Of a stretch of 64,000 nt of DNA, positions 1,285-56,951 are shown piece by piece. This stretch comes from a virus. The position numbers and the translations under genes were made by a program. The stretch's first letter is position 1; the number at the start of each line of letters is the position of its first letter. The notes below the pieces were generated by a model. It saw only the letters and a program-made list of their open reading frames with translations, had not been told where the DNA came from and did not search any database. The stretch is from positions 1 through 64,000 of IMG/VR virus record IMGVR_UViG_3300027972_000007; one strand, written 5' to 3'.

Positions 1285-1644
1285 ATGGCTAAATATAAAG
1301 AGTATTTAGAAAGCGTATTGAATGAGACAAAAGAATCAAGAGAACTAATGAAGAAGCAGAATCTTACTTATGCAGGATATGGAGTATATAAAGACAAACA
1401 GGGTAACAAGTTTGAGTATGATTCTAATCTGAAGAAGATGAAGAAATTAACTTTAGATACTAAAGTTAAATTGGGTGATAAATTTATTGATAAATATAAA
1501 GGTTCGAAGAAAGAAGATAAACCATTAAAAAAATCTATACTTAAAAAAGAAGAACAAAAGAAAAGTGTTGCAGATTGGGATGAATGGAGAAACGCAGGCG
1601 CTGGGAGGTATGGATATGCTGGAGAGAAAAGAATCCTGAAGTAA
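1285..1644 (+). CDS. Putative internal head protein with CTS-like leader; C-terminally degenerate paralogue of 7..585
   Basis: Starts MAKYKEYLESVLNE; 127-bp identity with the window start. Confidence 0.7.
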   Translation: MAKYKEYLESVLNETKESRELMKKQNLTYAGYGVYKDKQGNKFEYDSNLKKMKKLTLDTKVKLGDKFIDKYKGSKKEDKPLKKSILKKEEQKKSVADWDEWRNAGAGRYGYAGEKRILK

Positions 1645-1747
1645 TTTCAGATCTTTCTTATGCAAATCTTCGTGACTGCAAAAGGAATTAAATAACTCTT
1701 TAATTTTTATAGTAATAAATTAAATGAGAATTTTTAGCAATATCTTT

Positions 1748-1755
1748 TATAAATA
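1748..1755 (+). promoter_or_regulatory. T4-type late promoter TATAAATA (usually extended to TATAAATAATTAAAA). Further copies at 10765, 11234, 18372, 21621, 22849, 38186, 56214, 56619, 56681, 59685; variants at 23109, 47549, 56941
   Basis: Exact T4 gp55-dependent late consensus. Most copies lie shortly upstream of an SD and start codon. Confidence 0.85.
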
Positions 1756-1781
1756 ATTAAAAATAAAGAAGTGGAGGTATT

Positions 1782-2582
1782 ATGAAGATAAGTGATATAT
1801 TAACCAAGTTAGGTCTTAAACCTGAAGACCAAAAGTTGATTGAAGAGTCCATTCAGGCTCTTATTGATGAACGTGTTCTTTTGAAAGAAGAAGAGTTAAA
1901 AACTTCTTATGATACTCTGTTATCTGAGACATTAGAAAAAGAAGTCGAAGAAAAAGTTGAGGAAATTAAAACTCAATTAGTCGAAGCTTCCGAAAAATGG
2001 CAAGAGGATTATGAGAAAGAAATAACTGATCAGCTTGACGGTTTTATTGATGCGGAAATAGAAAAGAATATTTCTGATGAAGCATTAGATAAGATTGCAA
2101 TTAATGAAGTAGCTCTTCCAATTGTCGAAGGTATTAAGAAATTATATGAGGAAAATCATATTGAACTTAATGCTGACGGTTCTGCTAAAGTAAAAGAATT
2201 AAGTGAAAAAGTTGAGAAATTAACTTCTGATCTTAATGAAAGCATTAGCAAGAATATTGAATTGGAAAATATTTCTGAAAAAGCTGCCGTAAAACTTCGT
2301 ATTAATGAAGTTTGTGATGGATTAGATGACGAGTTAGTAGAACAGGTAAAACTAAATTTTTCTGAAAAGTCTTTTGCTGATGTAGATGCAAAAATTGACA
2401 ATTATATTGAAATGATTGTCGAAGAGAAGACTAATAAGGAAAATAAAGTTGGTAGCGAAGATAAGCCATTAAACGAATCTAAAAAGCTCGAATCTGATGA
2501 AAATGTATCTCCAGATAAGGCGAAAGAAATTGTGCTGACTGGCGACGCAAAAGTATTAGATAAAGCAATGAGGTATTTTTAA
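1782..2582 (+). CDS. gp22: Prohead core scaffold protein, gp22-like
   Basis: Acidic coiled-coil protein between gp21 and gp23, with many I/L-x-E cleavage-type sites. Confidence 0.85.
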   Translation: MKISDILTKLGLKPEDQKLIEESIQALIDERVLLKEEELKTSYDTLLSETLEKEVEEKVEEIKTQLVEASEKWQEDYEKEITDQLDGFIDAEIEKNISDEALDKIAINEVALPIVEGIKKLYEENHIELNADGSAKVKELSEKVEKLTSDLNESISKNIELENISEKAAVKLRINEVCDGLDDELVEQVKLNFSEKSFADVDAKIDNYIEMIVEEKTNKENKVGSEDKPLNESKKLESDENVSPDKAKEIVLTGDAKVLDKAMRYF

Positions 2583-2646
2583 TTAACTAAATTTTATAAT
2601 TTGATTTGAAAGAGGTTTATATGCAAAAAAGAAATGAAGGAGGATA

Positions 2647-3984
2647 GTGTATATGATAGCAAGACCGAGAGCCGAACTTATTAAGAAGTGGTCAGAGTTG
2701 AAAGATAAAAACGGCAATCTTTCTCCTTTTTCCGTAGCTGATATTAAAGATCACTACGTGAAAGGTAATGTAGCTCAACTACTTGAAAACACAATGACCG
2801 ATTATGGTTTGATTGAAGAAGATATAAATATGTTGCTTGAGGCTTCTCAGGCAGATACAACTTTATCGAACGTTGGCGGAAAAATTGATGGCAGTGCAGA
2901 TGCGGCGGCTTATAAATGGCAGCCGATAGTATTAGCACTTGTTCGTAGGGCTATGCCTGAATTGTTTGCTCATAAAGTTGTTGGTGTGCAGTCAATGAAT
3001 GCGCCCGTTGGTTTGGCGTATGCAATTAGGAAGATTTATACTTCCGGTAATACAGAAGAGAATGAGGCAGGATGGGAAGCGCCCGATTATTTTGGTGGAT
3101 ATACTGGTAATCAGTCTCAAACATCTGGTGTTCTTTCTCAGGAACAGAGCGGTATTTATGATACATCTGCTGCTGGTATTGCTGCAACATCCGCAGAAAC
3201 TTGGACTATTGGACCTTCAGGAACTTGGCCACAGTTGAAGATTAAGATCGATAAGAAAACTATCGAGGCTGTTTCAAGAAAATTAGCAACAAGTTATTCG
3301 CTTGAGTCCGCACAAGATTTAAAAGCGATGCTTGGTGTTGAGATTGAAAGAGAAATGGTAGATTTTATTCAGTATGAGCTTGTTGCTGAGTTAGACAGAG
3401 AGTTAGTATACAGGATTAAAAAGGCAGCGACTACTGCAAGTCTTGGTGGAGAGGTACTTTCGAGTATTGACTGTTCAGGAACTGCATTAGACGGACGTTG
3501 GTCACAAGAGAAGTTTAGCAATATAATTAATGCTATTATACAGCAATCTAATAGAATTGCTACTTTGACTCGTCAAGGTGCTGGAAACTTTGCAATTGTG
3601 TCTCCTGCGATAGCTACTGTTTTACAGGGTGCCCCAACTCAGTGGTTCAATAAGAATACATCTGATGTTGATGTGCAAAAAGCAGGTATTGCTGATATTG
3701 GTAGTATTAATGGAAATTCAATAAAGATTTATAGGGATTCTTATGCGAGAGTTTCTTATGCGTTGGTTGGATATAAAGGTCCAACTCCTAAAGAAGCTGG
3801 AGTTATATATTGTCCTTATTTACTTGGATTGACACAGAGAGCAATTGATCCGAGTGATTTCAGTCCGAGAATTGGAACCATTATGCGGTATGCGATTGTT
3901 GATAATATGCTTGGCAGCGGTCGTTACTACAGACTGTTGCATTTCTCGAATATTGGTCAGATCGTACCGGGTGCAACTATATAA
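2647..3984 (+). CDS. gp23: Major capsid protein, gp23-like
   Basis: LVRRAMPEL...GVQSMNAPVG, SRKL...YSLESAQDLKA, YCPY and FSPRIG...RYA motifs of T4-like MCPs. Confidence 0.96.
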   Translation: MYMIARPRAELIKKWSELKDKNGNLSPFSVADIKDHYVKGNVAQLLENTMTDYGLIEEDINMLLEASQADTTLSNVGGKIDGSADAAAYKWQPIVLALVRRAMPELFAHKVVGVQSMNAPVGLAYAIRKIYTSGNTEENEAGWEAPDYFGGYTGNQSQTSGVLSQEQSGIYDTSAAGIAATSAETWTIGPSGTWPQLKIKIDKKTIEAVSRKLATSYSLESAQDLKAMLGVEIEREMVDFIQYELVAELDRELVYRIKKAATTASLGGEVLSSIDCSGTALDGRWSQEKFSNIINAIIQQSNRIATLTRQGAGNFAIVSPAIATVLQGAPTQWFNKNTSDVDVQKAGIADIGSINGNSIKIYRDSYARVSYALVGYKGPTPKEAGVIYCPYLLGLTQRAIDPSDFSPRIGTIMRYAIVDNMLGSGRYYRLLHFSNIGQIVPGATI

Positions 3985-4081: not shown

Positions 4082-4143
4082 TTAGAATTGAGGATAATTT
4101 TTAGTATACTTTGATATTACTTTTCGTTTATTCTTAATTGTAG
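4082..4143. repeat. 62-bp imperfect palindromic intergenic element, copy 1
   Basis: TTAGAATTGAGGATAATT + 26-bp core + degenerate inverted arm; related copies at 10662, 31374 and 52654. Confidence 0.85.
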
Positions 4144-4232
4144 GCAATGTAATAGCGTTTAATTGGGTTATTTTAATAAAAAAGGACTCAAAAATGATTT
4201 CGAGTCCTTTTTCACTTCTTATTCTGCAGTTT

Positions 4233-5715: not shown

Positions 5716-5734
5716 ACTGTTCTCCTGTTTATTG

Positions 5735-5784
5735 TTTATTTTCTTTCTTATTATAATATATATTATAGTAACAATAAAAGTCAA
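5735..5784 (-). promoter_or_regulatory. Early sigma70-type promoter cassette TTGACT-N17/18-TATATT. Other copies: minus strand with -35 at 6937-6942, 7587-7592, 10595-10600; plus strand at 50519, 61355, 61628. TTGTTT variants at 52706 and 56640
   Basis: Highly similar repeated sequence containing an exact or near TTATAATATATATTATAA palindrome, followed by a shared A-rich leader and SD. Confidence 0.85.
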
Positions 5785-5797
5785 GGATTATTTTAAA

Positions 5798-6121
5798 TTA
5801 TTTTTGATTTAATTTTCTACCCATTTCATAAGCAGTTTTAGCAATCTCGAAAACATTTAATTGATGAACGTAATTAAAATTTCCGTCATTATTCGATGGT
5901 CGATATTCAGTTTTTTCGTGAATCATATCAAGTATTTCTTTTGGTGCATTACATTTTAATAAAAGTGAAGTTGAAATTTTTCTTCTGCCGTCATTACCAA
6001 AGTCACAATCACCAAAATCGACATACGCTTCGCTGTTAGTTTCATATTTTTCAAATATACCATATAATTGTAAGTTTTTATGATACACGGGATCGCCAGT
6101 GTTAAATATTTTTTCGTTCAT
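5798..6121 (-). CDS. Hypothetical protein, SH3/KOW-like N-terminus
   Basis: F..GD.V.H....YG pattern. Confidence 0.55.
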   Translation of the reverse strand: MNEKIFNTGDPVYHKNLQLYGIFEKYETNSEAYVDFGDCDFGNDGRRKISTSLLLKCNAPKEILDMIHEKTEYRPSNNDGNFNYVHQLNVFEIAKTAYEMGRKLNQK

Positions 6122-10537: not shown

Positions 10538-10661
10538 ATTTTAACTCCTGTTTAATTTTCTTTCTTATTATAATATATATTATAACGCAAAATAAGTCAA
10601 GAAGTATTTTAAATTATTTTTACTATCTTTAAAAACTACTAAAATAAGCGTTATTTTAACT

Positions 10662-11258: not shown

Positions 11259-11993
11259 ATGGCAACAATTACAAATTTAAGCGATATGAAAGAGTACATT
11301 TTAAGGCAACTTGGATATCCTGTTATTAACGTAGAAATGACACCGGAACAACTCGACGATATAATTCAAGAAACAATAGATGTGATGAATAGATATTTAT
11401 ATGGCGAAGCAGTATATAATGATTATGTAGTTTTTACTACTTCGGCAGGAGTTGACGAATATTCTTTATCGGGAAATAATATAGTAGATATATACGATTT
11501 TGAATTTTCAACAGGAACTAATGGTATTCATACATTATTTACTCCAGTTCATACATTATTATATCAGGACTGGGTAGTTAAGGGCAATTATCCCGGAGCA
11601 GGTAGAGGATTAAATTTGACCAGTTATCAGATTGATATGATGTATTTAGAAGATGTAATTCGCGCATTTGGTAAAACATATTGTGTTGATTGGTGGCCGC
11701 AAAGAGAAATTTTAAAACTTTCACCAACTCCAGACGAAGCACTTTCAGGAATTTTAATGGTATGGAAAAAATCAGATGCAGTAAATTTATACAATCATTT
11801 ATTTACACGCCAATATTCAGTTGCAAAAGCAAAAATTTTATGGGGTACTATTTTAGGTAAATATAGCGTAGAATTGCCAGGCGGTGGAACAACTAATGGC
11901 GGAGAAATTAAAAATGATGGAAAAGATGAATTAGAAAAAGTATTAGAAAATATAAAGAAAGAATCAGAACCAGTAGATTTTATCATCGGATAA
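11259..11993 (+). CDS. gp13: Neck/head-completion protein, gp13-like
   Basis: KEYILRQLGYPVINVE.T.EQ and WG..LGKY..V.LPGG...NG motifs. Confidence 0.92.
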   Translation: MATITNLSDMKEYILRQLGYPVINVEMTPEQLDDIIQETIDVMNRYLYGEAVYNDYVVFTTSAGVDEYSLSGNNIVDIYDFEFSTGTNGIHTLFTPVHTLLYQDWVVKGNYPGAGRGLNLTSYQIDMMYLEDVIRAFGKTYCVDWWPQREILKLSPTPDEALSGILMVWKKSDAVNLYNHLFTRQYSVAKAKILWGTILGKYSVELPGGGTTNGGEIKNDGKDELEKVLENIKKESEPVDFIIG

Positions 11994-13041: not shown

Positions 13042-13257
13042 ATGAGAAGTATTAAAGAATATTTAAATGGGGTATTGAATGAAGACGAATTTACAGATAA
13101 TTCTTTAAAAAGACTTAGTATTTTAAAAATCGAACAAAAAATAAGAGAAACAGAAAAGAATAATAAAATTCATCCTATAAAGAAAACAGTTTTAATTAGT
13201 GATTTAAAGAAAAGATTACAGAAAATGAAAGAAGAATATAATAAAAAATCAAAATAA
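13042..13257 (+). CDS. CTS-leader small protein
   Basis: Starts MRSIKEYLNGVLNE. Confidence 0.7.
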   Translation: MRSIKEYLNGVLNEDEFTDNSLKRLSILKIEQKIRETEKNNKIHPIKKTVLISDLKKRLQKMKEEYNKKSK

Positions 13258-13269: not shown

Positions 13270-13488
13270 ATGGGCAAATTTAAAGAGTATTTAAGCGAAG
13301 CATCAGTATATTACACAAGTGAGAATGATGGGCATAAGCATATTTATCAAATTAGATTAGACGATTACGGCGAGACTATTAACACACTTTCTAAAGATAA
13401 TGCATATCCCGATCATGTTCATAAGATTATAAAAAATAAAATTGAAAAATGTAAAGATCATACTCACACATTAGAAGAAATAAAATAA
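13270..13488 (+). CDS. CTS-leader His-rich (HxH repeat) protein
   Basis: MGKFKEYLSE; GHKH, DHVH and DHTH. Confidence 0.7.
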   Translation: MGKFKEYLSEASVYYTSENDGHKHIYQIRLDDYGETINTLSKDNAYPDHVHKIIKNKIEKCKDHTHTLEEIK

Positions 13489-14334
13489 ATGAAAACATTT
13501 TATTACCCTCGAACTACTTATAATATTTCAGTAGCATTTTCAGATTTGTTCAATGATATAGTTATACGAAAGTATAACAAAGCGAGGACAGTTGTTGAAA
13601 ATGTTAAAGTTCCATTAGCTTTTGGTAATAGAGATAAATTTTGGGATATACGTAAAGAACAAGAAGAAAAGATAAAATATAATTTGCAATTACCGAGAAT
13701 GTCATTTTCTTTAGTTTCTTTAAGTTACGATTCTGAAAGAGCATTATCACCGACTACACAGAGAAAGTTTTGGGATGAGAATGTTAGCTTGAGTGATTTG
13801 AGTAATTTCTTTACTGATATTATTCCATCTCCATATAATTTCGAATATAATTTAGAAATTAGAGCAGAAAAAATGGAGGATTATACTCAAATTATAGAAC
13901 AAATATTACCGTATTTTAATCCCTCTCAATTTTTAAGAGTGAAAGAATTTTCATTTTTAAATCTTGAAAGAGATTTAAAGGTAATAATGAATCCAAGTAT
14001 TAATTTAGATTTATTGAATGAACAAGACGAACAAAGTAGAAGAGAGATAAAAAGTGTTTTGAGTTTTACTGTTTATGGTTATTTATATAAACCATACGAA
14101 TCAACTAATATACCAATTAAGATTATTCAATCGAGATATTGGGTTGATGAAATTTCTGCAACTAATATAACTTCTGCCAGTGCTTATGAAGTAAATCAAT
14201 TTAGAACAAGTGGATTTTTTGTTAATTCGGCAGGCGATTTATCTGGAGTACCTGGCGAAGGGCAATATGATTTTTCAGCATTTAGCGACGATAATGATAT
14301 GTATTATTTTACTTCAGCAGATGGGATGCTATAA
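13489..14334 (+). CDS. gp15: Tail sheath stabiliser/terminator, gp15-like
   Basis: FSDLFNDI, VPLAFG, LPRMSF...YD.ER, PSPYN and QIIEQILPYFNP motifs. Confidence 0.92.
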   Translation: MKTFYYPRTTYNISVAFSDLFNDIVIRKYNKARTVVENVKVPLAFGNRDKFWDIRKEQEEKIKYNLQLPRMSFSLVSLSYDSERALSPTTQRKFWDENVSLSDLSNFFTDIIPSPYNFEYNLEIRAEKMEDYTQIIEQILPYFNPSQFLRVKEFSFLNLERDLKVIMNPSINLDLLNEQDEQSRREIKSVLSFTVYGYLYKPYESTNIPIKIIQSRYWVDEISATNITSASAYEVNQFRTSGFFVNSAGDLSGVPGEGQYDFSAFSDDNDMYYFTSADGML

Positions 14335-14742
14335 ATGGGTAAATTTAAAGAATATTTATTAAATGAACAACAGAAAATTAAACATAGAAAAAATTATCAA
14401 ATTAAGTTTGATTTATCTACAATAGGTCGAAATGATTGGGATAAAGAAATTTTATCTAATAAAGACGATTTTGTTATTAAGTTATCTTATATGAGTCCAG
14501 ATGAATTTTTAGATAAAACTGATGCTTCTCGATATTTAGTTGATCAAGCAAAACTTGATAAAATAAAAAGTACTTTAGGAACGAAAGCATTACCGGCTTT
14601 AATAATAATTTGGGGCGCAGGCGGCGATAAACATAAATCAGCTTTTCATGATGGTCAGCATCGAGCTATAGCATTAAAGATGTTAGGAATTACACGTATT
14701 CCAGTATACCAAGTATGGGATAAAGAATACTTTAGAAAATAA
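14335..14742 (+). CDS. CTS-leader protein with a ParB/Srx-like motif
   Basis: MGKFKEYLLNE; MSPDEFL...HDGQHRAIA...GI..IPV. Confidence 0.7.
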   Translation: MGKFKEYLLNEQQKIKHRKNYQIKFDLSTIGRNDWDKEILSNKDDFVIKLSYMSPDEFLDKTDASRYLVDQAKLDKIKSTLGTKALPALIIIWGAGGDKHKSAFHDGQHRAIALKMLGITRIPVYQVWDKEYFRK

Positions 14743-14779: not shown

Positions 14780-15301
14780 ATGAATGGCGAAAAAGAATAT
14801 TTTGACGGTATTGCTAATGTGTTTAATAGTGAATTCATAAAAGATACTTCATTATCAGCAATTGAAAATACATTACAAGTAATTACTAATGAAAAAAGAA
14901 GTATTGAAAATGTTGCAAATAAAAAATTAATCACTTTAAAAGATAAAGATTATTTAGAAGAAAAGACAAAAACATTAATTGAAATGTCATTAAAGGTTTT
15001 AACTAATTTAAAAGACGATATAAAAATTGGGTCATCAGCAAGAGATTATGAAGTATTTGCAAAATTAGGTGATACCATTGTAAATCAAATTAGAGAATTA
15101 AGAGAATTAAATAAAATGATTTCCGATATGGAAATATTTAATAATGAAGAACCAGAAGATAAAGCTAAAGTGAATGTTAATATTAAAATGACCGGTAAAG
15201 AAATGCTCGAATTATTTAAAAAGATTAAAGAAGAATCGAGTATGAATGCAGTAGATGCAGAATTTGTAATAAAAGATGATAAAGACGACAAGGATGAATA
15301 A
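14780..15301 (+). CDS. gp16: Terminase small subunit, gp16-like
   Basis: SARDYEVFAKL matches the gp16 (P/A)R.YEV motif; position before gp17. Confidence 0.8.
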   Translation: MNGEKEYFDGIANVFNSEFIKDTSLSAIENTLQVITNEKRSIENVANKKLITLKDKDYLEEKTKTLIEMSLKVLTNLKDDIKIGSSARDYEVFAKLGDTIVNQIRELRELNKMISDMEIFNNEEPEDKAKVNVNIKMTGKEMLELFKKIKEESSMNAVDAEFVIKDDKDDKDE

Positions 15302-16207
15302 ATGGGTAAATTTAAAGAGTATTTGTTGAATGAATCTATTATTCATACTGATACAAAATTTATTGACGAATTAAATTTAGTTAAAAATAAAGTATTAGAA
15401 AAAAATTTAGGAACGTATGAAATATGTGAAATATTTAATGATAAATTAAGAAAATATGGTTTAGTTTTTAGACAAGAAGGTTTCAGTGTTTCTGATAATT
15501 CGGAATACGCGAAATCATGGATTAGAGGGGCAGGAACTAATGAAAGAGGAATAGTAACAATATTCGTTGAAGATGAATTTTATAAAGTATTTGATTATGA
15601 AGGAGAGTGGAATAATTTTATTAAAGTATTAAAAAGAATAGTTTCACACGAACTCGTGCATAAAGGGCAAATAAGCAGAATAAAAGCAAAAAATAAAGAA
15701 CAAAGCGGAGAAATATTAAGAAAACTCGGCGACGATGAAAGATTAACAATAACTTCAGGCGAAGCAAGAAAATATCTTTCACGAAAAATGGAATTAATGA
15801 GTTTTGCAAAAGAGGCCATCGAAGAATTTAGAGATATAGGATATACCGACAAACAAATTTTAAATAGAATTAGAAAACCATTAGATAAAAATATATATCC
15901 TTCAAAAGAAGAATCACATATTTTTTATAGATATACAGATTATTTTGATATTAATGAAAAACCATTTAAAGATTTTTTAAAATATTGTTATCATTATTTG
16001 AATAAAAAAGAAGATATAAAAAAGAATATAAATACTGAAAATTTATTTTTTAATTATATAAAAAATAAAAGATTTAAAAACCCCGAAACAGATAATCAAG
16101 TATTGTTTTATTCTTTACCCGAAAAAGAACAAAATAAAATAAGAGAAATATTTAGAAATTTTTATAAAAATAATAGATTAAAAAAGACGAATAAATGGGA
16201 CCTATAG
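15302..16207 (+). CDS. CTS-leader zinc metallopeptidase-like protein
   Basis: MGKFKEYLLNE; SHELVH (HExxH) with downstream Y....ME..SFA. Confidence 0.65.
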   Translation: MGKFKEYLLNESIIHTDTKFIDELNLVKNKVLEKNLGTYEICEIFNDKLRKYGLVFRQEGFSVSDNSEYAKSWIRGAGTNERGIVTIFVEDEFYKVFDYEGEWNNFIKVLKRIVSHELVHKGQISRIKAKNKEQSGEILRKLGDDERLTITSGEARKYLSRKMELMSFAKEAIEEFRDIGYTDKQILNRIRKPLDKNIYPSKEESHIFYRYTDYFDINEKPFKDFLKYCYHYLNKKEDIKKNINTENLFFNYIKNKRFKNPETDNQVLFYSLPEKEQNKIREIFRNFYKNNRLKKTNKWDL

Positions 16208-16747: not shown

Positions 16748-18376
16748 ATGTTTCGTAATAATTCTAGTTTACGATCTGCCGGCGAACGTATTGAAATGAC
16801 TCCTGAATTAAAAGAGGAGTGGTTTAAATGCGCACAAGATCCTATTTATTTTTTAGAAAATTATTATTACATTATTACTATTGATGAAGGCAAACAATTA
16901 TTTAAACTTCGTGATTATCAAAAGAAAATAGTTAAACTTTTAGTTCAACCGCCAATTCATTTGCCACATTTGATCTGTAACATTCCACGTCAATGTGGTA
17001 AGACAGAAATTATGAATGGTTATTTAATGCATTATGCTTTATTTAATGCAGATAAAAATATTGCAGTATTAGCGCACAGAGAAAAAACTGCAAAAACAGA
17101 AATTTTAGGTAGAATAAAATTTGCTTATCAGTGTTTACCATTATGGTTACAACAAGGTGTATTACCAGAGGGATGGAATGCTAAATCATTAATTTTAGAA
17201 AATGGCAGTAAAATAACAGCATCAGCTTCTTCTATGTCAAGTATATCCGGGGAGACCGTGTCAGTTTTATATTTGGATGAATTCTCGAAGCTGCCTCATC
17301 ATTTAGCAGATGCATTTATTACAGCAACATACCCAGTTATATCGAGCGGAAAATCTTCGAAAATTATTATTACATCAACTCCGTTAGGTTTAAATCATTA
17401 CCATGATTTTTGGGATGCAGCAATAAAGCGTAAGAATAATTTTTATCCAGTTAAAGTTAAATGGCAAGAAGTTCCAGGTAGAGATAAAGCATGGAAAGAA
17501 AAAATAATACGTGATATTGGTAGATTAAAATTTTCACAAGAATTTGGCGGAAAATTTTTAGGTTCTTCTGCTACATTAATTGATTCAGAAATTTTAGAAT
17601 CATTAGAAATCAAAACAGCAGTGGAAGATAAATGGGATGGAAAATTATTAATATACGAACCGCCAGAGCCAAATACTTTATATATAATGGGAGTTGATAC
17701 TGGTAAAGGTATTGGTAAAGATAGATCAACCATTCAAGTTTTAAAAATCGCAGATAAATTTGATATTAAACAGGTAGCAGTATATAAAAATGATAAAATA
17801 GGAACGTATGATTTTGCTGAAGTTTGTATTTCAGTTTCTAAATTCTATAATGGCGCTTACATGATGATTGAATCGAATGGTGAAGGAAAAGGATTAGTAA
17901 GTACTATTTGGTATGAACATGAATATGATAAACTTTGTAATATAGATAAAAAGGGTTTAGGTATATATGCAAATAGGGGAAATAGATTAGAAGCCCATTT
18001 ATTGTTAAAAGAGTATATGGAGAAAGAATGGCTATTTGTTTGTGATAGTGAAACAATTTATGAATTATCTAAATACGTAGAAGTTAAACCTAATGTATTT
18101 CATACAGAATCGCCTAATGGGTTTGATGATTTAGTTACTGCATTATTCTGGGCTTTATATTTTTTAAAGACATCATATTTTGACGATAAAGATATTGGCA
18201 ATAAAAGAATACAAGATAAGTTTAAATTACAAGATAATGAAGAACAAGAGCCAGTAATGTTTTTCGATGAAGGGGCAAATAATAATAATATTAGTTATAA
18301 TAAGACTGATGAATTATATACGGATATATATAACGCTAACAGCAATCAATTTGATAGTGATTTTTTAGTTTTATAA
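16748..18376 (+). CDS. gp17: Terminase large subunit, gp17
   Basis: PRQCGKT Walker A, LYLDEF Walker B, TSTPLG, GVDTGKG and DDLV nuclease motifs. Confidence 0.96.
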   Translation: MFRNNSSLRSAGERIEMTPELKEEWFKCAQDPIYFLENYYYIITIDEGKQLFKLRDYQKKIVKLLVQPPIHLPHLICNIPRQCGKTEIMNGYLMHYALFNADKNIAVLAHREKTAKTEILGRIKFAYQCLPLWLQQGVLPEGWNAKSLILENGSKITASASSMSSISGETVSVLYLDEFSKLPHHLADAFITATYPVISSGKSSKIIITSTPLGLNHYHDFWDAAIKRKNNFYPVKVKWQEVPGRDKAWKEKIIRDIGRLKFSQEFGGKFLGSSATLIDSEILESLEIKTAVEDKWDGKLLIYEPPEPNTLYIMGVDTGKGIGKDRSTIQVLKIADKFDIKQVAVYKNDKIGTYDFAEVCISVSKFYNGAYMMIESNGEGKGLVSTIWYEHEYDKLCNIDKKGLGIYANRGNRLEAHLLLKEYMEKEWLFVCDSETIYELSKYVEVKPNVFHTESPNGFDDLVTALFWALYFLKTSYFDDKDIGNKRIQDKFKLQDNEEQEPVMFFDEGANNNNISYNKTDELYTDIYNANSNQFDSDFLVL

Positions 18377-18394: not shown

Positions 18395-18652
18395 ATGGGG
18401 TTCGAGGAATTTTCAAAAGAAAGATTTTATGAGAGGGGTTGGTTGAAAGTGGATTTAATTAATGAAGGGAAAGAGAATGAAATTGGTAAAGACATTGCCA
18501 AAAAATTAAAATTAATTTTTAATGGATATTGGAAAGAAATGGATAAATTAACATTCACCGATCCAGTAAGTCAAAATACATTCACTGCTAAAGATTTTCA
18601 AGAAGCAGAAAGTAAAATTAATAAAATTAGGAATCAAATAAAGAAGGATTAA
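18395..18652 (+). CDS. Small protein with a degenerate CTS-like leader
   Basis: MGFEEFSKE, after a late promoter. Confidence 0.55.
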   Translation: MGFEEFSKERFYERGWLKVDLINEGKENEIGKDIAKKLKLIFNGYWKEMDKLTFTDPVSQNTFTAKDFQEAESKINKIRNQIKKD

Positions 18653-18654: not shown

Positions 18655-18924
18655 ATGGGTAGAACTTATAAAGATTATTTACGGGAAGAAAGAAATTATT
18701 CTGATATAATGAGTATAGTTAAGAAGAAGAAAGAAAAGAATAAAGATTTTTATACGACAGACGAATATAAGAAATTATACGACGAAGCAACAAAAGCATA
18801 TAAAAAAGAAGGGTTAGATGTTAAGAGAAAAAATGAGTTGAAAAATAGAAGGAAATTTAATAAACAGATTAGACAGGGAATGGAAGATACTGGAATGCCA
18901 GTTGGATTATTTTTAGGGAGATAA
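18655..18924 (+). CDS. CTS-leader basic protein
   Basis: MGRTYKDYLREE. Confidence 0.65.
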   Translation: MGRTYKDYLREERNYSDIMSIVKKKKEKNKDFYTTDEYKKLYDEATKAYKKEGLDVKRKNELKNRRKFNKQIRQGMEDTGMPVGLFLGR

Positions 18925-18926
18925 TA

Positions 18927-19982
18927 ATGAAATTTAAACAATATCTTATAGAATCAAAAGAATCAAGAGAAGCAATGAAGAGAATGAATCTTGATTATAT
19001 TGGCTGGGGTCATTATAAAGATAATAGTAATAATATATATGTCTGGAATGCGCATTTAAAGAAGATGTTAAAAAAAGAAATAGTTAAAGAAATTAAACCA
19101 GTAAATAAAACTTTTATAACTAGTATTATAAAAGAAAAATTAAAAAAATATCCTAAAATAAAAAATGTTCAATATGTAGGCAGTTTATCTAAATTTGAAA
19201 GTGGGAATGATGTAGATTTAAAATTAGACATTGAAGAGGATGAGTGGAGAGAAGCCGACGAAATTGTTTTTGATTTTATTAACGATATTAAGAAAACAGT
19301 TGGAAGTTCAAAAAGATTAGAAGATTTAAAAATTGATGTTTTTATTAATAATAGAAAATCAGTTTCTTGGAATTATTTTTTAATGTGGCTATTTTATGAA
19401 GATTTAGATTTAATACCCAACGAAAAATTAGAAGATTTCAATTTTTTTGGCGATGGCGACCCAGAATTTAGAAAAGACAAAGATTATACATTGTATAGAA
19501 TTTTAAATAGAAATAGGGACGATGCAATTAGATTGTTAAAAAGAATAAAATATAAAATTCCAAATACGATGGAAGCAAAATTAAATAAAATTGAAAATAT
19601 TATTGTAACAATGGGCGGCGGTTATACTTTTGCTTATGGATATTGGAATAAAAATATCGCAGGTTTAGATATAGAAAAAAATAGGGATAAAGGTGTTTTA
19701 AGTACTGAAGAAGAAGAACTTTTATTTAAAGTTCGATCTGGATTTGAAATATTTGCGAGAGAATCATTTATTAAACAATCTATTTCTATTAAAGGCGGTA
19801 GTAGAGTATATAGAACGGCATATATTAAAAGAGGAGAACAAGAAAAAAAGGTTGATATGTATGTAATAAAAATGTTATTAAATAAAGGATATTTAAAAAA
19901 AGCTAATGAAGAAGAAGTTTTGGAATTTGGTCGAAAAAGATTTAAATACATTTTAACATCTAAAGGCGAAGAATATAAATGA
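18927..19982 (+). CDS. CTS-leader protein with a pol-beta-type nucleotidyltransferase motif
   Basis: MKFKQYLIE; VGSLSKFESGNDVDL and IDVF. Confidence 0.65.
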   Translation: MKFKQYLIESKESREAMKRMNLDYIGWGHYKDNSNNIYVWNAHLKKMLKKEIVKEIKPVNKTFITSIIKEKLKKYPKIKNVQYVGSLSKFESGNDVDLKLDIEEDEWREADEIVFDFINDIKKTVGSSKRLEDLKIDVFINNRKSVSWNYFLMWLFYEDLDLIPNEKLEDFNFFGDGDPEFRKDKDYTLYRILNRNRDDAIRLLKRIKYKIPNTMEAKLNKIENIIVTMGGGYTFAYGYWNKNIAGLDIEKNRDKGVLSTEEEELLFKVRSGFEIFARESFIKQSISIKGGSRVYRTAYIKRGEQEKKVDMYVIKMLLNKGYLKKANEEEVLEFGRKRFKYILTSKGEEYK

Positions 19983-20476
19983 AATTTAAACAATATTTTT
20001 TAGAACAAAAACAATATAAAATTTATTGTGATCTCGACGGCGTTATAGTAAATTTTCTTAAACAAGTAAAAGATGCTGGTATTCCAGATAATTTGTATGA
20101 TAAAGATAAAGAATTATTTTTTCAAAAAGTAGAAGAAAAAGGAATAAAATTTTGGACTGATATGCAATGGTTATCAGATGGACACGAATTGTGGAATTAC
20201 ATTAAAGATAAGAATGTTACAATATTATCAGCAAAAACAAAGTCGCCATTATGTAAAAAAGGTAAAGAAATTTGGGTTAAAAGAGAATTAGGTAATGTTA
20301 ATTTAATAGTAACTTGGAAAAAGAATAAGAAAAGTTATGCAAATAAGAATTCTATTTTAATCGATGACGATAAAGGAAATATACAAGAGTGGGAAGAAAA
20401 TGAAGGTATTGGCATTTTACATACATCAGCAAAAAATACTATTAATAAGTTAAAAGAAATATTAGGAAAAGAGTAA
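19979..20476 (+). CDS. CTS-leader HAD-family 5'(3')-nucleotidase-like protein
   Basis: MKFKQYFLE; CDLDGV, ILSA, K..WV and LIDD motifs. Confidence 0.8.
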   Translation: MKFKQYFLEQKQYKIYCDLDGVIVNFLKQVKDAGIPDNLYDKDKELFFQKVEEKGIKFWTDMQWLSDGHELWNYIKDKNVTILSAKTKSPLCKKGKEIWVKRELGNVNLIVTWKKNKKSYANKNSILIDDDKGNIQEWEENEGIGILHTSAKNTINKLKEILGKE

Positions 20477-20478
20477 TT

Positions 20479-20697
20479 ATGAGCAAATTTAAAGATTATT
20501 TAAATGAAGCAGTTACTGAAGAAAGTAAAGCTAAAAATGAAAAAATAATTGCAGATAATTTGAAAGATATATATAAAGCAGATAGATATGAATTTGCTAC
20601 AAAAGATGGGAAGAAAGTTGTTTATTTTTATAAAAAAGATAAAATGATTAGGATGTATGAATTCAAGAAAAGGAATTATAGACATGGGCAAATTTAA
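20479..20697 (+). CDS. CTS-leader small protein
   Basis: MSKFKDYLNE. Confidence 0.65.
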   Translation: MSKFKDYLNEAVTEESKAKNEKIIADNLKDIYKADRYEFATKDGKKVVYFYKKDKMIRMYEFKKRNYRHGQI

Positions 20698-21145: not shown

Positions 21146-21167
21146 GATATATTTAAAGGATAAAAAA

Positions 21168-21614
21168 ATGGGCAAATTTAAAGAATACTTATTAACAGAA
21201 ATTAAAAAATCAGTATTAATGAAGAATACTGATAAAAAAAGAATAAAATTATCTAAAGAAATGAGAGTTAGACCGCCAAAGGTTGAAACTTTAGATAATG
21301 GATTAGAAAGAATGTCTTATAAGTTTAAAATGTCACCTCCAAGCAAGTCCGTAGAAGGTAAAAGTCATTATGGATATATAGATTATGATTCAAAAACTAA
21401 AGATATTAAAAAATTATTTTGTTCATGTAAAGATTGGGCATTCAGACTTCGTTATCCTTATGCTAAAGATGATTTAGCAACGTGGGATTTGGATAAAAAA
21501 TTTAAGAAAAAAGAACCTTTTGAGCACAATCAGGAGCCGACTTACGAGACGAACCCGAATTTTACTAAGTTCCTATGCAAGCATCTTTTTGCACTCATTA
21601 AATCGTATTTATAA
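21168..21614 (+). CDS. CTS-leader SWIM zinc-finger protein
   Basis: MGKFKEYLLTE; CSC.DW...CKH. Confidence 0.75.
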   Translation: MGKFKEYLLTEIKKSVLMKNTDKKRIKLSKEMRVRPPKVETLDNGLERMSYKFKMSPPSKSVEGKSHYGYIDYDSKTKDIKKLFCSCKDWAFRLRYPYAKDDLATWDLDKKFKKKEPFEHNQEPTYETNPNFTKFLCKHLFALIKSYL

Positions 21615-21644
21615 TGAAATTATAAATAATTAAAAGGATATTAT

Positions 21645-21866
21645 ATGAAACAAGATTTTGGTCATTATTTAATTAATTTTTTAGGTAGAAAAGATATTAA
21701 AGAAACAAGTAAGAAAATTAATTTGATCAATTTTTTCAATGAAATTACAACTAATGAATTAAAAAAGGTTTATCGGCATTTATATAATGATAAGAATTTT
21801 AATTTTGAAAGAAAAGTGTTGATTGATAAGATATTAGAAAAGTCAAACGATATTAATATTAAATAA
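21645..21866 (+). CDS. Hypothetical late protein
   Basis: ORF after a TATAAATA promoter. Confidence 0.55.
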   Translation: MKQDFGHYLINFLGRKDIKETSKKINLINFFNEITTNELKKVYRHLYNDKNFNFERKVLIDKILEKSNDINIK

Positions 21867-21875
21867 GGAGATACG

Positions 21876-22055
21876 ATGAAACCAATAACTGAGTATTTAA
21901 ATGAAGCAACCAATCAAAAACAGGGGAGTCTATGCCCAGATTGTGCAGGAAAAGGTAAAAAATCTCTAACTCATACGGGATTGTATGAATGTACTCAATG
22001 TGGAATGTTATATGACCCAAATAATAAAAAACACGATCCGAGAAGAGGACGATAA
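21876..22055 (+). CDS. CTS-leader zinc-ribbon protein (59 aa, missing from the ORF track)
   Basis: MKPITEYLNEATNQKQGSLCPDC...YECTQCG; AAGGAG SD. Confidence 0.7.
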   Translation: MKPITEYLNEATNQKQGSLCPDCAGKGKKSLTHTGLYECTQCGMLYDPNNKKHDPRRGR

Positions 22056-24879: not shown

Positions 24880-25332
24880 ATGAACATTACAAAAGAAACT
24901 ATAAAAGAAATTTCTAAAAATTGGAAAAATCCAATATCAGGAGGATTTGCAGATAATAAAAATCCTTCTGATTTCCCTATAGAACAACTTATAAAGGGTG
25001 TTAAAATAGAGCAGGAACATACAAAAGATTTAAAGATTGCTTTAAAGATTTCTATGGATCATTTAGTGGAATTCAAAAATTATTATGATTACTTAATAGA
25101 TATGGAAAATAAAATAAAAAAAGAATTAAAGGAGAATTACAGTATGAGAAGTATTAAAGAATATTTGAATGAGACACTAAAAAAAGAAAACAAGGACGAA
25201 CAGATAGAAGGTTATGGAGTAAAGGGATTGAATAGTACAAAATGGAGAAGAGTATTTAAAAGTGTTGAAGCTATGAATAAATGGGCCGAGAAAAACGACG
25301 CCGAAGTTCACGGAACAAGAAAAGCAGATTAA
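24880..25332 (+). CDS. Two-part protein: DUF5661-like N-terminus in frame with an internal CTS-leader ORF starting at 25144
   Basis: G..IE.EHT...I..DHL.E...YY, then AAGGAG and MRSIKEYLNE. Confidence 0.6.
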   Translation: MNITKETIKEISKNWKNPISGGFADNKNPSDFPIEQLIKGVKIEQEHTKDLKIALKISMDHLVEFKNYYDYLIDMENKIKKELKENYSMRSIKEYLNETLKKENKDEQIEGYGVKGLNSTKWRRVFKSVEAMNKWAEKNDAEVHGTRKAD

Positions 25333-26998: not shown

Positions 26999-27775
26999 AT
27001 GGGTAAGTTTAAAAATTATTTAGAAGAATATATGAATGAAGCAATTGGTGATTTTTCACAAGCCGGTGAATTGGCTGGCGATATTGTTTCTGGAATAAAG
27101 TCTGGAGCAGAAGCAATTGGAACAACACTAAAAAATATGATACATAAGTTGAGTACTTTGCGCGAAGCCCATAAGAAATTAGTCACAAAAATTGAAGAGT
27201 TAAGAAGTAAAAAAAGTAAAATAGAAAATCAAATAGAGAAGCAAAATTATTCAAAACAGATTAAATTATTAGAATCTCAAGCAGCAAAGATGCAACAAAA
27301 TATAGATAGATTAGCAGTAGAAAAAGAAAAAGAAGTGCAAAGGGAGTTTGAAAAAAGAAAACGTGCACGTGATGTTGCTAAAAAATATAGAGAGAAGAAA
27401 AAGACAGAAAAAGGTATTAAGCCAAAAGAGAAGAAAGAAGTTGGAAAACCAATAAAAGAAAAAGAAGTAAAAGGAAAATCTGCTGTTAAACCCGAAGTAA
27501 AAAAAGAGGAAAAGCCAATGACGGAGAAACAGGCAGGGGCAGCAAGAACAACGCAGTTAAGACAAAATAGAGATTTATTAGAAAATGAGATGAAAAGCTG
27601 GCAAGAAAAAAAGAAATCGATGACTGAAAAGGCAAAAACAACAGGAAAGCCGGAATATAAAGAAATGGTTAAAAAAATAGATTTAAGAATGTGGGATATA
27701 GAAAAAAGAATTGATGTAATAGATACAAAACTGGGGTTGATTAAAATGCATATGAAAGCAGCCTCGAAAGGATAA
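26999..27775 (+). CDS. CTS-leader Lys/Glu-rich coiled-coil protein
   Basis: Start revised to MGKFKNYLEEYMNE. Confidence 0.65.
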   Translation: MGKFKNYLEEYMNEAIGDFSQAGELAGDIVSGIKSGAEAIGTTLKNMIHKLSTLREAHKKLVTKIEELRSKKSKIENQIEKQNYSKQIKLLESQAAKMQQNIDRLAVEKEKEVQREFEKRKRARDVAKKYREKKKTEKGIKPKEKKEVGKPIKEKEVKGKSAVKPEVKKEEKPMTEKQAGAARTTQLRQNRDLLENEMKSWQEKKKSMTEKAKTTGKPEYKEMVKKIDLRMWDIEKRIDVIDTKLGLIKMHMKAASKG

Positions 27776-50147: not shown

Positions 50148-50510
50148 ATGAATATTGTGAAAGTTGAATTGTTGAAAGATGCTAATGTAATTATTGAAAC
50201 ATTAGAAAGAATTGGTATAGCAAATATAGGTTTAAAAACATTATGGCCAAGCTGTTATTTGTATACTGAAAATGAAGAACATTTTATAGTTCATTTTAAA
50301 GAATTGTTTTTATTAACTAAAGAAAATAGCTATAATAATGTAAGTGAAAAAGATATTGAAAGAAGAAATGCTGTAATATGGAATTTAAAAAATTGGGGGT
50401 TGATTAATGTCGATGAAAATTTAATTGAGCCCCATAGTGAAAAAGTATTTGTATTGCAGCATAAAGAAAAAAGAGAATGGAAAATAGAACATAAGATTAA
50501 GTACAGATAA
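50148..50510 (+). CDS. regA: Translational repressor RegA
   Basis: ETL.RIGIAN...L..SC....IVHFKE.F...RRN.....L..WGLI. Confidence 0.92.
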   Translation: MNIVKVELLKDANVIIETLERIGIANIGLKTLWPSCYLYTENEEHFIVHFKELFLLTKENSYNNVSEKDIERRNAVIWNLKNWGLINVDENLIEPHSEKVFVLQHKEKREWKIEHKIKYR

Positions 50511-50587
50511 AATATTCCTTGACTTTTATTGCGTTATAATATATATTATAATAAGAAAGAAAATAAACAATTAAAAGGAGAAAATAT

Positions 50588-50908
50588 ATGAATAAGAAAG
50601 TTGTAGATTATCTGAATGAGGATGTAAAGAAAACAATAAAATTATCCGATGTCAGAAAAAAGTTGGAAGAAGAAAATGTCGGCGATCAGATAACCACAAA
50701 AAACGGTAATATATTAGTAAGAAAAGGATATTTTTATTCGAGCGGGGGTAGCGAAGAAAAATTAGCTTCCAGAATTACTCCAATTTTAGATTCTATGAAT
50801 ATTAAATACACAATAGTTGATAAAGGAAATGTATGGAGATCTTTTAAAGGCGGTGCGCCCATAGCCAAACAGTCCCATTGGTATGTAGAAATAAAAATAA
50901 ATGAATAA
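50588..50908 (+). CDS. CTS-like leader protein (MNKKV subfamily)
   Basis: MNKKVVDYLNE. Confidence 0.65.
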   Translation: MNKKVVDYLNEDVKKTIKLSDVRKKLEEENVGDQITTKNGNILVRKGYFYSSGGSEEKLASRITPILDSMNIKYTIVDKGNVWRSFKGGAPIAKQSHWYVEIKINE

Positions 50909-52644: not shown

Positions 52645-52653
52645 ATTTTATAC

Positions 52654-52715
52654 CTAGAATTGAGGATAATTGGAAAGTAATATCAAAGTATATTAAAAAT
52701 TATCCTTGTTTTTAG
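52654..52715. repeat. 62-bp palindromic element, copy 4 (inverted orientation)
   Basis: Core is the reverse complement of the core in copies 1 and 3. Confidence 0.85.
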
Positions 52716-54920: not shown

Positions 54921-54922
54921 AA

Positions 54923-55438
54923 ATGGCTAATATATTTTTTACATCTGATACACATTTTGGTCATTTAAATAAAAGAGGAACAGGAATTATTGATTATTGT
55001 AAAAGGCCATTTAAAGATATAATAGAAATGGATAACGCATTAATTGAAAATTGGAATAGAAAAGTATCGATGTATGATATAGTATATCATTTAGGAGATT
55101 TTTCTTTTTATAATTTTTCAATAGCTAAATTAAATGGTTATATTCAATTCATAAAAGGTAATCATGATGCTAAAAAATGGCCTGATTTCGCAGTAGTAAA
55201 ATTTAAAGGAAAGAAAATATTATTACGGCATAAACCTTTTGAAAAATATGAAGATATTTCATATCCTCAATGTGATATTATATTTTGTGGGCATGTACAT
55301 GAAAAATGGCTGTTTAAAATATGTAAAAGTTTAAATAATGAAAGTAAATTAATGATAAATGTTGGAGTAGATATGTGGAATTTTGAACCAGTTACATTCG
55401 ATGAAATAATGAAAAATGTAAGAATAAGGAGTATGTGA
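54923..55438 (+). CDS. Calcineurin-like metallophosphoesterase
   Basis: SDTHFGH, LGD, GNHD, GHVH and NVGVD motifs. Confidence 0.9.
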   Translation: MANIFFTSDTHFGHLNKRGTGIIDYCKRPFKDIIEMDNALIENWNRKVSMYDIVYHLGDFSFYNFSIAKLNGYIQFIKGNHDAKKWPDFAVVKFKGKKILLRHKPFEKYEDISYPQCDIIFCGHVHEKWLFKICKSLNNESKLMINVGVDMWNFEPVTFDEIMKNVRIRSM

Positions 55439-55439
55439 T

Positions 55440-55973
55440 ATGAATAATGAACATGTAGAAATTCTTAAATCTGGTGTTGCAGAATGGAATGAGTGGAGAA
55501 AAGAAAATCATAGTGTAATTCCTGATCTGCAAGGTGCTAATCTGCGGGGTGCTAATCTGCAGGGTGCTGATCTGTGGAATGCTAATCTGCAGGATGCTGA
55601 TCTGCAGGGTGCTGATCTGTGGAATGCTAATCTGCAGGATGCTGATCTGCGGGGTGCTAATCTGCGGGGTGCATATCTTTCCCGTGCAGATCTTCTGAGA
55701 AGTCAGTATCAAATATCAAATTTATTACATGGAATATGTTGGGGCGAATTAACTAAAGAATTAACTCTCGAACTAATGCGTAGAGACGCAATAATTTGTG
55801 GAGTTGAAAAAATGAATAAATGGGCAAAAGGGCACAATTGTCCATTTAAAACAGGTTTTGAAAGGGATTTTTTCTTTAATCAAAATCAAAAAATTTGGAA
55901 ACCAGGTAAACCAAAACTTAATGATTTACAACTATTTAAAGCTTTATGTAATGTAAAGAAAATAAAGATTTGA
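55440..55973 (+). CDS. Pentapeptide-repeat protein
   Basis: WNEWRKEN..IPDL followed by A[N/D]L repeats. Confidence 0.85.
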   Translation: MNNEHVEILKSGVAEWNEWRKENHSVIPDLQGANLRGANLQGADLWNANLQDADLQGADLWNANLQDADLRGANLRGAYLSRADLLRSQYQISNLLHGICWGELTKELTLELMRRDAIICGVEKMNKWAKGHNCPFKTGFERDFFFNQNQKIWKPGKPKLNDLQLFKALCNVKKIKI

Positions 55974-56676
55974 AATGAATTACTTCTATACCCTATATAT
56001 ATAATTAAAACAAAGGAGTTGAAAGTGAAAGGTCTTTTCATAAAATTAATATTCATTTTTGTATTTGCTTTATCGTATGCTTCATTAACAGATTATATTA
56101 TATCCCATAAATTAATAACAGAAGCAAGAAGTCTAATAACGTTAGGATTTTTTATGGGAATAACATGGGCAATTATTTACGATATTATTTTTACCATCAC
56201 AAAACACAATCATTATAAATAATTAAAATAAATCTTGTTTTTATTAGAAAAATTTATTGAACATTGACAACCCCAAATTACCAGAATGATTAATGAAGCA
56301 GCAAAAGAATTCGTAGATAATAAATTTTGGGAAATTACTGAATTATTAAATTCTTTAAAAGAACAAGTTCAAAATAAAATAGAAGATAAATAAAAAGGAA
56401 TATGTGGTATGCCAATTAACACTAAAATAATAGAAATTTCAAAAAAGATTCTAAATTCTAATGGTAATATGCACGATAGAGTCGAAAAAGTAATTGAACC
56501 ATATAATTTAAGTGACGACGAATTATCTCAATTAGGATTTGAGTTAATAACTGATGTTATTTCAATTTTTTGCCAATTAAAAATTATGCGCGGAATAAAG
56601 ACTAGAAAATCACAGGGTTATAAATAATTAAAATAAATCTTGTTTTTATTAGAAAAATATATTATATTTAATGTTG

Positions 56677-56951
56677 ATATTATAAATAATTAAAAAGGAT
56701 GGAAATATGAAGTCAGTATTAGAGTATTTAAATGAGAGTACAAAATATGTATCAGTAGATACAAACGCATTCGAAAATGAATATGGAAAGAAACCAAAAG
56801 GAATAGCCGGATGGGCATTTAAAATTAATGGGAAAGAATTTTCTTTTAGTGGTAGTTATTCAGAAGCAGTAAAAAAAGCTAAAGAAAGAGCATCTAATAT
56901 GGGTGTATATTCAATAACACTTATGATTTAATACAGTAATGATAAATAATT
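56677..56951 (+). repeat. Exact 275-bp duplicate of 22845..23119, containing the 74-aa CTS gene (56707..56931)
   Basis: Base-by-base identity read by eye. Confidence 0.92.

Follow-up and report, generated by a model that had tools for sequence, protein, structure and literature searches.

Why should 21 distinct genes of one phage begin with the same short peptide? The question is raised by bases 1–64,000 (hereafter the window) of the 170,170-bp linear IMG/VR virus record IMGVR_UViG_3300027972_000007, which is estimated to be about 74% complete and has a GC content of about 28%. Judged from its genes, the phage is an uncultured T4-like myovirus; it is very divergent, with only about 34% identity between its gp23 and that of cyanophages. 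Within these 64 kb, the pattern M-x(1-4)-hydrophobic-x-[EDQN]-Y-[LIF] opens 21 distinct open reading frames (ORFs), one of which is also present as an exact duplicate. We consider it likely that this leader is a head-targeting and processing tag of the capsid targeting sequence (CTS) type that is shared by at least 21 proteins, a set about seven times as large as that of the T4 internal proteins. The phage would thus probably package and inject far more proteins than the three of T4.

Genes are named here by the position of their first base. The initial annotation had listed 22 leader-bearing starts, and the motif is present at all 22. They correspond to 21 distinct genes, because 22875 and 56707 are one gene within an exact 275-bp duplication. 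The start at 18395, MGFEEFSKE, is weak, as had been noted; its relatives (loci L013 and L014) begin MSYIDFVLEE. The leaders are 9–11 residues long, 14 in 1285 and 13042, and stand directly after Met1; the most frequent form is MGKFKEYLxE. Tyr is at position 7 in 14/21 leaders, at position 6 in 3/21 and at position 8 in 4/21. A hydrophobic residue is found three positions before the Tyr in all 21 and a Glu three positions after it in 16, while [LI]-x-E occurs no more than eight residues past the Tyr in 20 of the 21, the exception being 19979 with F-L-E. Three leaders (20684, 25144 and 26999) start at internal ATGs of longer ORFs, each with its own Shine-Dalgarno sequence. The gene call at 25144 is ambiguous because it lies in frame inside a DUF5661 ORF (24880–25332); this ORF runs in frame into the full leader gene, with its own AAGGAG and ATG at 25144, and may represent a fusion or an internal start.

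We estimated how often such a motif would arise by chance. The core motif occurs 59 times among 43,013 internal positions; for N-terminal offsets 2–5 in 271 ORFs this gives an expectation of 1.5 N-terminal motifs, and 23 were observed. Motif-bearing ORFs account for 20/98 in the window versus 3/173 in the other 106 kb (Fisher p = 2.3e-7). A chance origin was rejected on the 15-fold enrichment and the confinement of the motif to the late block. Two leader-like starts lie beyond the window. One, at 166613–166933 (+), reads MSKSFLDYLKDE and has Asp in the expected place of Glu; for T4, targeting is reported to persist, but cleavage to be blocked, when CTS position 10 is Asp. The other, at 119423 (−) in the early region, reads MNFKKWLFEN and belongs to a 166-aa protein with a GxA...DVDI NTase-like motif.

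The likeness to the T4 CTS that was proposed initially extends to length, register, the functionally mapped residues and the gp21 cleavage consensus. In the T4 record, IPII and IPIII start MKTYQEFIAE and IPI starts MKTFKEF. For packaging, the ten N-terminal residues of IPIII are enough; of these, residues 4 and 7 matter to targeting and 8 and 10 to processing (PMC9026906). The corresponding residues of MGKFKEYLxE are Phe4, Tyr7, Leu8 and Glu10; the exact 4/7 register is kept in 14/21 leaders and shifted by one residue in 7/21. Calibrated on 41 kb of T4, our search pattern finds ipII and ipIII; ipI is found as well when the pattern is loosened.

The genome also encodes the machinery on which such a tag would depend, a gp21-family protease with catalytic His and Ser and a gp22-type scaffold core. 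T4 gp21 cleaves after the Glu of I/L-x-E, and its catalytic residues have been named (PMC12991175); His78 and Ser130/131 of the present gp21 align with T4 His85 and Ser140. The C-terminus of gp21 carries the CTS-like YFQEFLKE described in the initial annotation (residues 210–217, nt 1227–1250), which fits the suggestion of a review that propeptides of gp21 might function as a CTS does (PMC9026906). In gp23, a candidate maturation site LLE/AS (a slash marks the predicted cut) lies at nt 2833–2841, residues 63–65 counted from GTG; the T4 equivalent is FLTE/AEIGG at residue 65. A complex prediction of gp21 with residues 1–40 of ORF 13270, run without controls, gave a score of 0.01, which we weigh neither for nor against the reading.

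Is the peptide conserved, or the DNA that encodes it? Three DNA-conserved leader subfamilies exist, as had been reported. At the conserved positions, codons vary synonymously: Leu is encoded by TTA in 14 cases, TTG in 4, CTT in 1 and CTG in 1, and the acidic or amide position by GAG, GAT, GAA, CAA or AAT. Because the same residues use different codons across subfamilies, the constraint acts on the peptide. These data bear on the possibility that the leader is an expression element or a recombination linker, an AT- and Lys-rich start or a homology patch whose likeness to a CTS is coincidental. Near-identical DNA inside the subfamilies would fit such a role, cassettes do move in this genome (the 275-bp exact duplicate and a 127-bp repeat), and T4-type phages shuffle ORFans via short conserved regulatory motifs (PMC2839356). 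However, conservation at the amino-acid level spans codons, subfamilies and distant relatives, the conserved residues match the T4 functional positions, and the [IL]-x-E junction is retained in homologues with quite different leaders. The recent duplication, too, is bounded by promoter motifs and not by the leader. We therefore regard an expression or linker role as quite improbable.

The two copies of the 275-bp cassette are identical and contain a late-promoter-like motif, a Shine-Dalgarno sequence and a 74-aa leader gene. Both ends of the cassette are ATAAATAATT, the late-promoter-like motif, and the event looks like promoter-mediated cassette copying. The proposal that the leader DNA could serve as a crossover point gains no support from the only clearly recent event, which is bounded by the promoter-like ATAAATAATT; the 127-bp repeat lies downstream of the leader. 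Recombination at the CTS was reportedly proposed for T-even internal-protein loci by Comeau et al. in 2007.

Evidence that the junction, and not any particular leader, is kept comes from homologues of the cargos. Metagenome homologues of 20684 carry other N-terminal extensions, for example MIKLIDILREINE and MKKSQLKQLIKEEIRKALNE; all of these extensions end in [IL]-x-E at the same alignment column, right before the conserved GKQVGDLYHFT. ORF 18927 consists of three parts: the leader, a domain of about 45 residues ('SKESRE..MNL.Y.GYG.YKD', hereafter the adaptor) and an NTase-like region. Two proteins (P0133 and P0134) contain the third part without leader or adaptor, and in P0131, P0132, P0135 and ORF 1285 the leader and adaptor are followed by differing tails. 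A search for longer proteins with the N-terminal module of ORF 1285 found none, which is weak evidence. In 19979 the nucleotidase profile starts at residue 10.

ORF 1285 is also involved in the 127-bp repeat: nt 1–127 are 100% identical to nt 1432–1558, and the first 40 residues of ORF 1–585 equal residues 52–91 of ORF 1285. ORF 1–585 therefore repeats only the 1285 segment downstream of the KESRE adaptor. As the first 127 bases are an exact repeat and assemblers commonly use a k-mer of 127, this repeat is probably where the contig broke. ORF 1–585 is one of two pentapeptide-repeat proteins in this phage, which could act as DNA mimics; the second (55440–55973) is without the N-terminal part common to ORF 1–585 and 1285.

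The tagged genes are almost confined to a late structural block comprising gp21, gp22, gp23, a neck adaptor, gp15, terminase, sheath, tube and baseplate genes, followed by 19 tRNAs. Between terminase and sheath, eleven leader genes (18655 to 22875) are found among fourteen tightly packed ORFs, some of which overlap or abut. The T4 late-promoter motif TATAAATA lies 23–34 nt upstream of gp22, 18395, 21645, 22875 and 56707. Leader genes had been described as flush with the stop codons of gp15 and gp16. The first case is correct, 14335 starting right after gp15; in the second, 15302 abuts ORF 14780–15301, which is gp16 by position only.

Since many tagged genes are situated among tail genes (sheath, tube, baseplate), we asked whether the leader could be a propeptide or address unconnected with the head, either an inhibitory pro-sequence for toxic enzymes or a tail or baseplate tag. 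ADP-ribosyltransferase (ART)-like and nuclease-like cargos are possibly toxic to the producing cell, in keeping with an inhibitory pro-sequence. Yet the motif reproduces the CTS, which is specific to the head, and in T4 the activity of gp21 is limited to the prohead interior. Moreover, a 10-residue helix positioned outside the folded domain, as predicted for residues 2–10 in the model of 20684, is unlikely to block an active site. Of the explanations considered, we judge this one very improbable.

What does the tag carry? The description of the cargos as unrelated agrees with our comparison: after removal of the leader, blastp relates only 1285 and 18927 (31% over 106 aa). A single diverged paralogue family was considered and rejected, as the cargos have different folds and some homologues are without the leader. 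The mature parts are basic, with a median pI of 9.3 versus 8.0 for other small proteins (p = 3e-5); 87% of mature parts versus 39% of other small proteins have a pI above 8.5. Within mature cargo, [LI]-x-E sites are somewhat less frequent (1.03 per 100 aa, against 1.52 for other small proteins; Poisson p = 0.024), a weak hint that the cargo is exposed to the protease. No Pfam or PHROG match to T4 internal-protein families was obtained for any mature part, and as far as their sequences tell, the cargos share only the tag with T4 IPI, IPII and IPIII and are not members of these families.

Most cargos are ORFans or offer only motif-level hints. The clearest structural assignment is that of 20684, whose cargo has, in the predicted model, an ART fold of the DarT/Tpt1 clade. 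The AF2 model (pLDDT 76.6, pTM 0.76) matches Tpt1 7yw4 in Foldseek (E 9.3e-7, TM 0.56/0.69) and several DarT entries (6e-4 to 3e-3). Pfam gives no match at E <= 0.01, and a phmmer comparison with DarT1 gives a weak match (E = 0.2); LYHFT, SFTRNK and E-x-EER are conserved among the homologues. By its profile match, 19979 is a 5'(3')-deoxyribonucleotidase of the HAD/NT5C type (phrog_2643, 3.1e-23, residues 10–161), with CDLDGV at residues 17–22; the Pfam NT5C score (1.6e-4, 22.1 bits) is just below the cut-off of 24.8. The NTase-like identity of 18927 is a motif-level lead only: the structure model is poor (pLDDT 54.9), and the fold search is middling (winged-helix, Z 6-7, for residues 247–351; MNT chain, Z 5.9). 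ORF 15302 is possibly a zincin-like peptidase, with weak metallopeptidase leads in the Atlas (LPD23 0.86, SprT-like 0.83) and likewise in the PDB. ORF 14335 appears ParB/Srx-like by eye (DGQHR), and the PDB match to SbnI (E = 0.86) is a lead only.

That most tagged proteins are small, very basic ORFans also suggests a different role, as prohead-core or DNA-condensing proteins that are cut by gp21 like T4 gp67 and gp68 and are then degraded to peptides or serve only to offset the charge of the DNA, with no function in the next host. T4 core proteins are likewise processed by gp21 (PMC9026906). Position supports this idea for ORF 1285, which is among the head-core genes (gp21–gp22), as T4 gp67 and gp68 lie beside gp21; 26999 is Lys/Glu-rich and probably a coiled coil. 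The enzyme-like cargos (ART fold, nucleotidase, and an NTase-like protein with leaderless homologues) are difficult to reconcile with it, and the lower number of internal [LI]-x-E sites in the mature parts is not what would be expected of proteins destined for degradation. We consider a core or condensing role unlikely.

We compared IMG/VR loci whose gp15 is 34–42% identical. No close relative was found in the collections searched, the nearest gp15 sequences being 43–45% identical. In the IMG/VR relatives, the interval from the neck gene to gp15 holds one to three leader genes, and in some cases others follow gp15 or gp16. Leaders at these gp13-gp15-gp16 sites include MSFKEYIRE, MSFKDFLKE, MNFKEYLVE and MAKFKQFIAE. 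Their cargos fall into many blastp clusters; one family occurs in 12 loci and others are singletons. A complete 253-kb relative has about 9 leader genes. Because relatives carry leader genes at the same sites, the tag is a feature of the clade, and the present phage is at the high end of the sampled set. The exact leader DNA has no match in IMG/VR; in metagenomes it is found in two short, otherwise unrelated contigs with MGKFKEYL[AK]E. One metagenome contig, Ga0315540_10038532 (L111, 2326 bp), has at least two adjacent leader-type genes, MRFNSYLKE and MGKFKEYLKE, and a third, MNLIDKYLGEE, that fits loosely. This contig shows that the tag also occurs in phages that are otherwise without detectable similarity to the present one.

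Based on these observations, we suggest the following model. For the most part, the tagged genes would share T4-type late promoters and transcripts with head and tail genes. During prohead formation, the 9–11-residue N-terminal peptide would dock each protein on the gp22-based scaffolding core, and a gp21-type protease would cut after the Glu of [LI]-x-E to free a mature, usually basic protein. This protein would stay with the packaged DNA, be ejected into the next host and act before phage gene expression. Docking, cleavage, retention, ejection and any anti-defence role are what we infer. The initial annotation proposed a packaged and injected arsenal; the leader, protease, scaffold, gp23 site, non-homologous cargo and late-block placement speak for it, and the effector role goes beyond them. 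A broader proposal, which we doubt slightly more than we believe, is that an uncultured AT-rich T4-like clade uses the head as a general injection device, in which the CTS tag, sometimes with the adaptor of about 45 residues, is placed on 20 or more unrelated proteins that form a first-strike anti-defence arsenal, with cargo turnover at fixed late-operon slots. Its cargo would include the ART-fold, NTase-like and deoxyribonucleotidase proteins, and possibly a pentapeptide-repeat protein that could act as a DNA mimic.

Several points weigh against a packaged arsenal. The evidence comes from the sequence of an uncultured phage, and the record is about 74% complete and without a portal gene. The Glu three positions after the Tyr is absent in five leaders, and in 19979 F-L-E replaces [LI]-x-E. 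Leader DNA is nearly identical inside each subfamily, and recent spread by recombination therefore makes the independent cases seem more numerous than they are; in addition, AT-rich N-terminal codons with many for Lys favour translation initiation. Not all leader genes are clearly late, because 50588 follows a repeat of about 15 copies with a sigma70-like, early-type promoter. The shift in pI and the depletion of sites are both modest, it would be odd for a deoxyribonucleotidase to be packaged, and the pentapeptide fusion may be an assembly ambiguity.

The features of the window are collected in Table 1. The intergenic repeat of about 15 copies contains TTGACT followed by the palindrome TTATAATATATATTATAA and a Shine-Dalgarno sequence, and is probably an early promoter plus operator resembling T4-type PeSL cassettes; a search for TTGAC-N16-18-TATAAT gave no match, and the spacing in the repeat upstream of 50588 is non-standard. 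A second intergenic repeat family has copies of 55–130 bp with 84–96% identity, one of which sits just upstream of the leader candidate at 166613. The T4-type portal gene (PF07230) and a gp24 paralogue were searched for across the whole record and neither was found; the portion of the genome upstream of gp21 is missing from the record. Because these two genes are absent, our gene counts are lower bounds. A 460-aa protein (28714–30096) has a lytic transglycosylase domain, and its PHROG matches include 'internal virion protein with endolysin domain'; no CTS-like leader is present at its start. Megablast of the 4.4-kb gene against the phage collection gave no match.

Table 1. Positions of the leader genes, structural genes and repeats (a slash marks the predicted cut; repeat copies outside the window are given by one coordinate)
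Feature	Position	Strand	Family match or remark
Pentapeptide-repeat protein, 5' end cut by contig start	1..585	+	PF00805, 5e-56
gp21-type prohead protease, 223 aa	600..1271	+	PF03420 Peptidase_S77, 5e-18
Leader gene MAKYKEYLESVLNE/T with KESRE adaptor domain, between gp21 and gp22	1285..1644	+	
gp22-type scaffold (core) protein, 16 [LI]-x-E sites	1782..2582	+	PF25623 T4_CASP, 5e-11
gp23 major capsid protein	2647..3984	+	PF07068, 1e-76
Neck adaptor	11259–11993		
Leader gene MRSIKEYLNGVLNE/D, 71 aa, upstream of gp15	13042..13257	+	
Leader gene MGKFKEYLSE/A, 72 aa, upstream of gp15	13270..13488	+	
gp15 tail sheath stabiliser, synteny anchor	13489..14334	+	PF16724, 1e-47
Leader gene MGKFKEYLLNE/Q, 135 aa, DGQHR motif	14335..14742	+	Flush with gp15 stop
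ORF called gp16 by position only	14780–15301		Family matches: none
Leader gene MGKFKEYLLNE/S, 301 aa, HELVH motif	15302..16207	+	
Large terminase	16748–18376		
Weak candidate MGFEEFSKE, 85 aa, first gene past TATAAATA at 18372	18395..18652	+	
Leader gene MGRTYKDYLRE/E, 89 aa	18655..18924	+	
Leader MKFKQYLIE/S, KESRE adaptor of about 45 aa and NTase-like cargo (GS...DVDL), 351 aa	18927..19982	+	
Leader MKFKQYFLE/Q and 5'-3' deoxyribonucleotidase (HAD type, CDLDGV), 165 aa	19979..20476	+	
Leader gene MSKFKDYLNE/A, 72 aa	20479..20697	+	
Leader MGKFKEYLIE/G and predicted ART-fold cargo, DarT/Tpt1 clade, 153 aa	20684..21145	+	Model
Leader gene MGKFKEYLLTE/I, 148 aa, weak SWIM zinc-finger match	21168..21614	+	
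Leader gene MKPITEYLNE/A, 59 aa, zinc-ribbon-like	21876..22055	+	
Leader gene MKSIKEYLNE/A, 67 aa	22059..22262	+	
Leader gene MRFKDYIKE/E, 139 aa	22262..22681	+	
275-bp cassette copy 1, bounded by ATAAATAATT; gene 22875–23099, MKSVLEYLNE/S, 74 aa	22845..23119	+	
Sheath	23139–24875		
Leader MRSIKEYLNE/T, 62 aa, own AAGGAG	25144..25332	+	In frame within ORF 24880–25332
Leader gene MRSIKEYLEE/S, 110 aa	25352..25684	+	
Tube	25688–26242		
Leader gene MGKFKNYLEE/Y, 258 aa, Lys/Glu-rich, probably coiled coil	26999..27775	+	
Leader gene MNKKVVDYLNE/D, 106 aa, behind sigma70-like promoter repeat	50588..50908	+	
Leader gene MNKKVADYLNE/A, 84 aa	51328..51582	+	
Leader gene MNKKVVDYLNE/T, 105 aa	51659..51976	+	
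275-bp cassette copy 2 (gene 56707–56931)	56677..56951	+	
Repeat of about 15 copies, those in window	5720–5805, 10549–10621, 50508–50604, 61332–61414		
Repeat of about 15 copies, those outside window	67572, 67898, 73747, 86429, 94723		
Second repeat family, copies in window	4083–4175, 31374–31485, 52653–52706		
Second repeat family, copies outside window	66558, 68031, 97570, 123499, 166470		

Proteins injected with phage DNA act ahead of the reading of phage genes, and thus form a layer of counter-defence that is important and hard to predict. Besides Alt, T4 has three internal proteins with a CTS; to our knowledge, only IPI* among the packaged proteins of T4 has a known target. If 20 or more tagged proteins are packaged per genome in uncultured T4-like phages, packaged cargo would become predictable from sequence alone. 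Such predictions would supply a list of candidates for anti-defence or host takeover, including the ART-fold enzyme, the NTase-like protein and many ORFans, as well as a natural set of tags with which foreign proteins could be loaded into T4-type capsids. Metagenomes can be searched for the junction rule, by which differing leaders meet the same cargo at the same [IL]-x-E cut point.

The principle of a capsid targeting sequence is known from T4, and varied cargo is anticipated by reviews, which state that T4-like phages may be able to load a variety of proteins by means of the CTS and that T-even phages are not alike in their internal proteins. The scale, the enzyme cargos, the placement in late operons and the extra adaptor domain were not found in the literature since 2019 mentioning the term. 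As in T4, whose internal proteins are basic (PMC9026906), we find a tag of about ten residues, with hydrophobic or aromatic residues at 4 and 7 and [IL]-x-E at 8–10, on small, basic and mutually unrelated proteins, in a genome with genes for a gp21 protease and a gp22 core. The differences are that 21 tagged genes are present in 64 kb, compared with three in T4; that these genes are dispersed over the late operons for head, neck and tail, in contrast to the separate ip loci of T4; and that positions 7 and 8 are Tyr and Leu in place of the Phe and Ile of T4. Here, moreover, the cargo includes enzyme folds, two proteins add the adaptor of about 45 residues, and the system is known from genes alone. 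T4 Alt is a head-packaged ADP-ribosyltransferase (PMC9026906), an ART-fold enzyme with a short N-terminal propeptide that is removed by gp21, and is injected with the DNA; 20684 resembles it in combining a predicted ART fold with a CTS-like leader. However, 20684 has 153 aa, its predicted fold is nearest to the nucleic-acid-targeting DarT/Tpt1 clade, and it is not a sequence relative of Alt.

Two further systems invite comparison. PeSL cassettes are small ORFan cassettes bounded by conserved regulatory motifs (PMC2839356), as the 275-bp duplicate is bounded by ATAAATAATT. They differ in having early promoters with stem-loops and in lying in hyperplastic regions, whereas the boundary here is late-promoter-like and the gene is CTS-tagged. 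In the giant phages phiKZ, 201phi2-1 and SPN3US, a protease related to gp21 cleaves many proteins of the head interior after Glu, and these proteins are ejected into the host (PMC5694885). Their sites are S/A/G-x-E, and their propeptides are mostly longer than 100 residues and have no short tag in common, in contrast to the phage described here, in which one short T4-type tag is reused.

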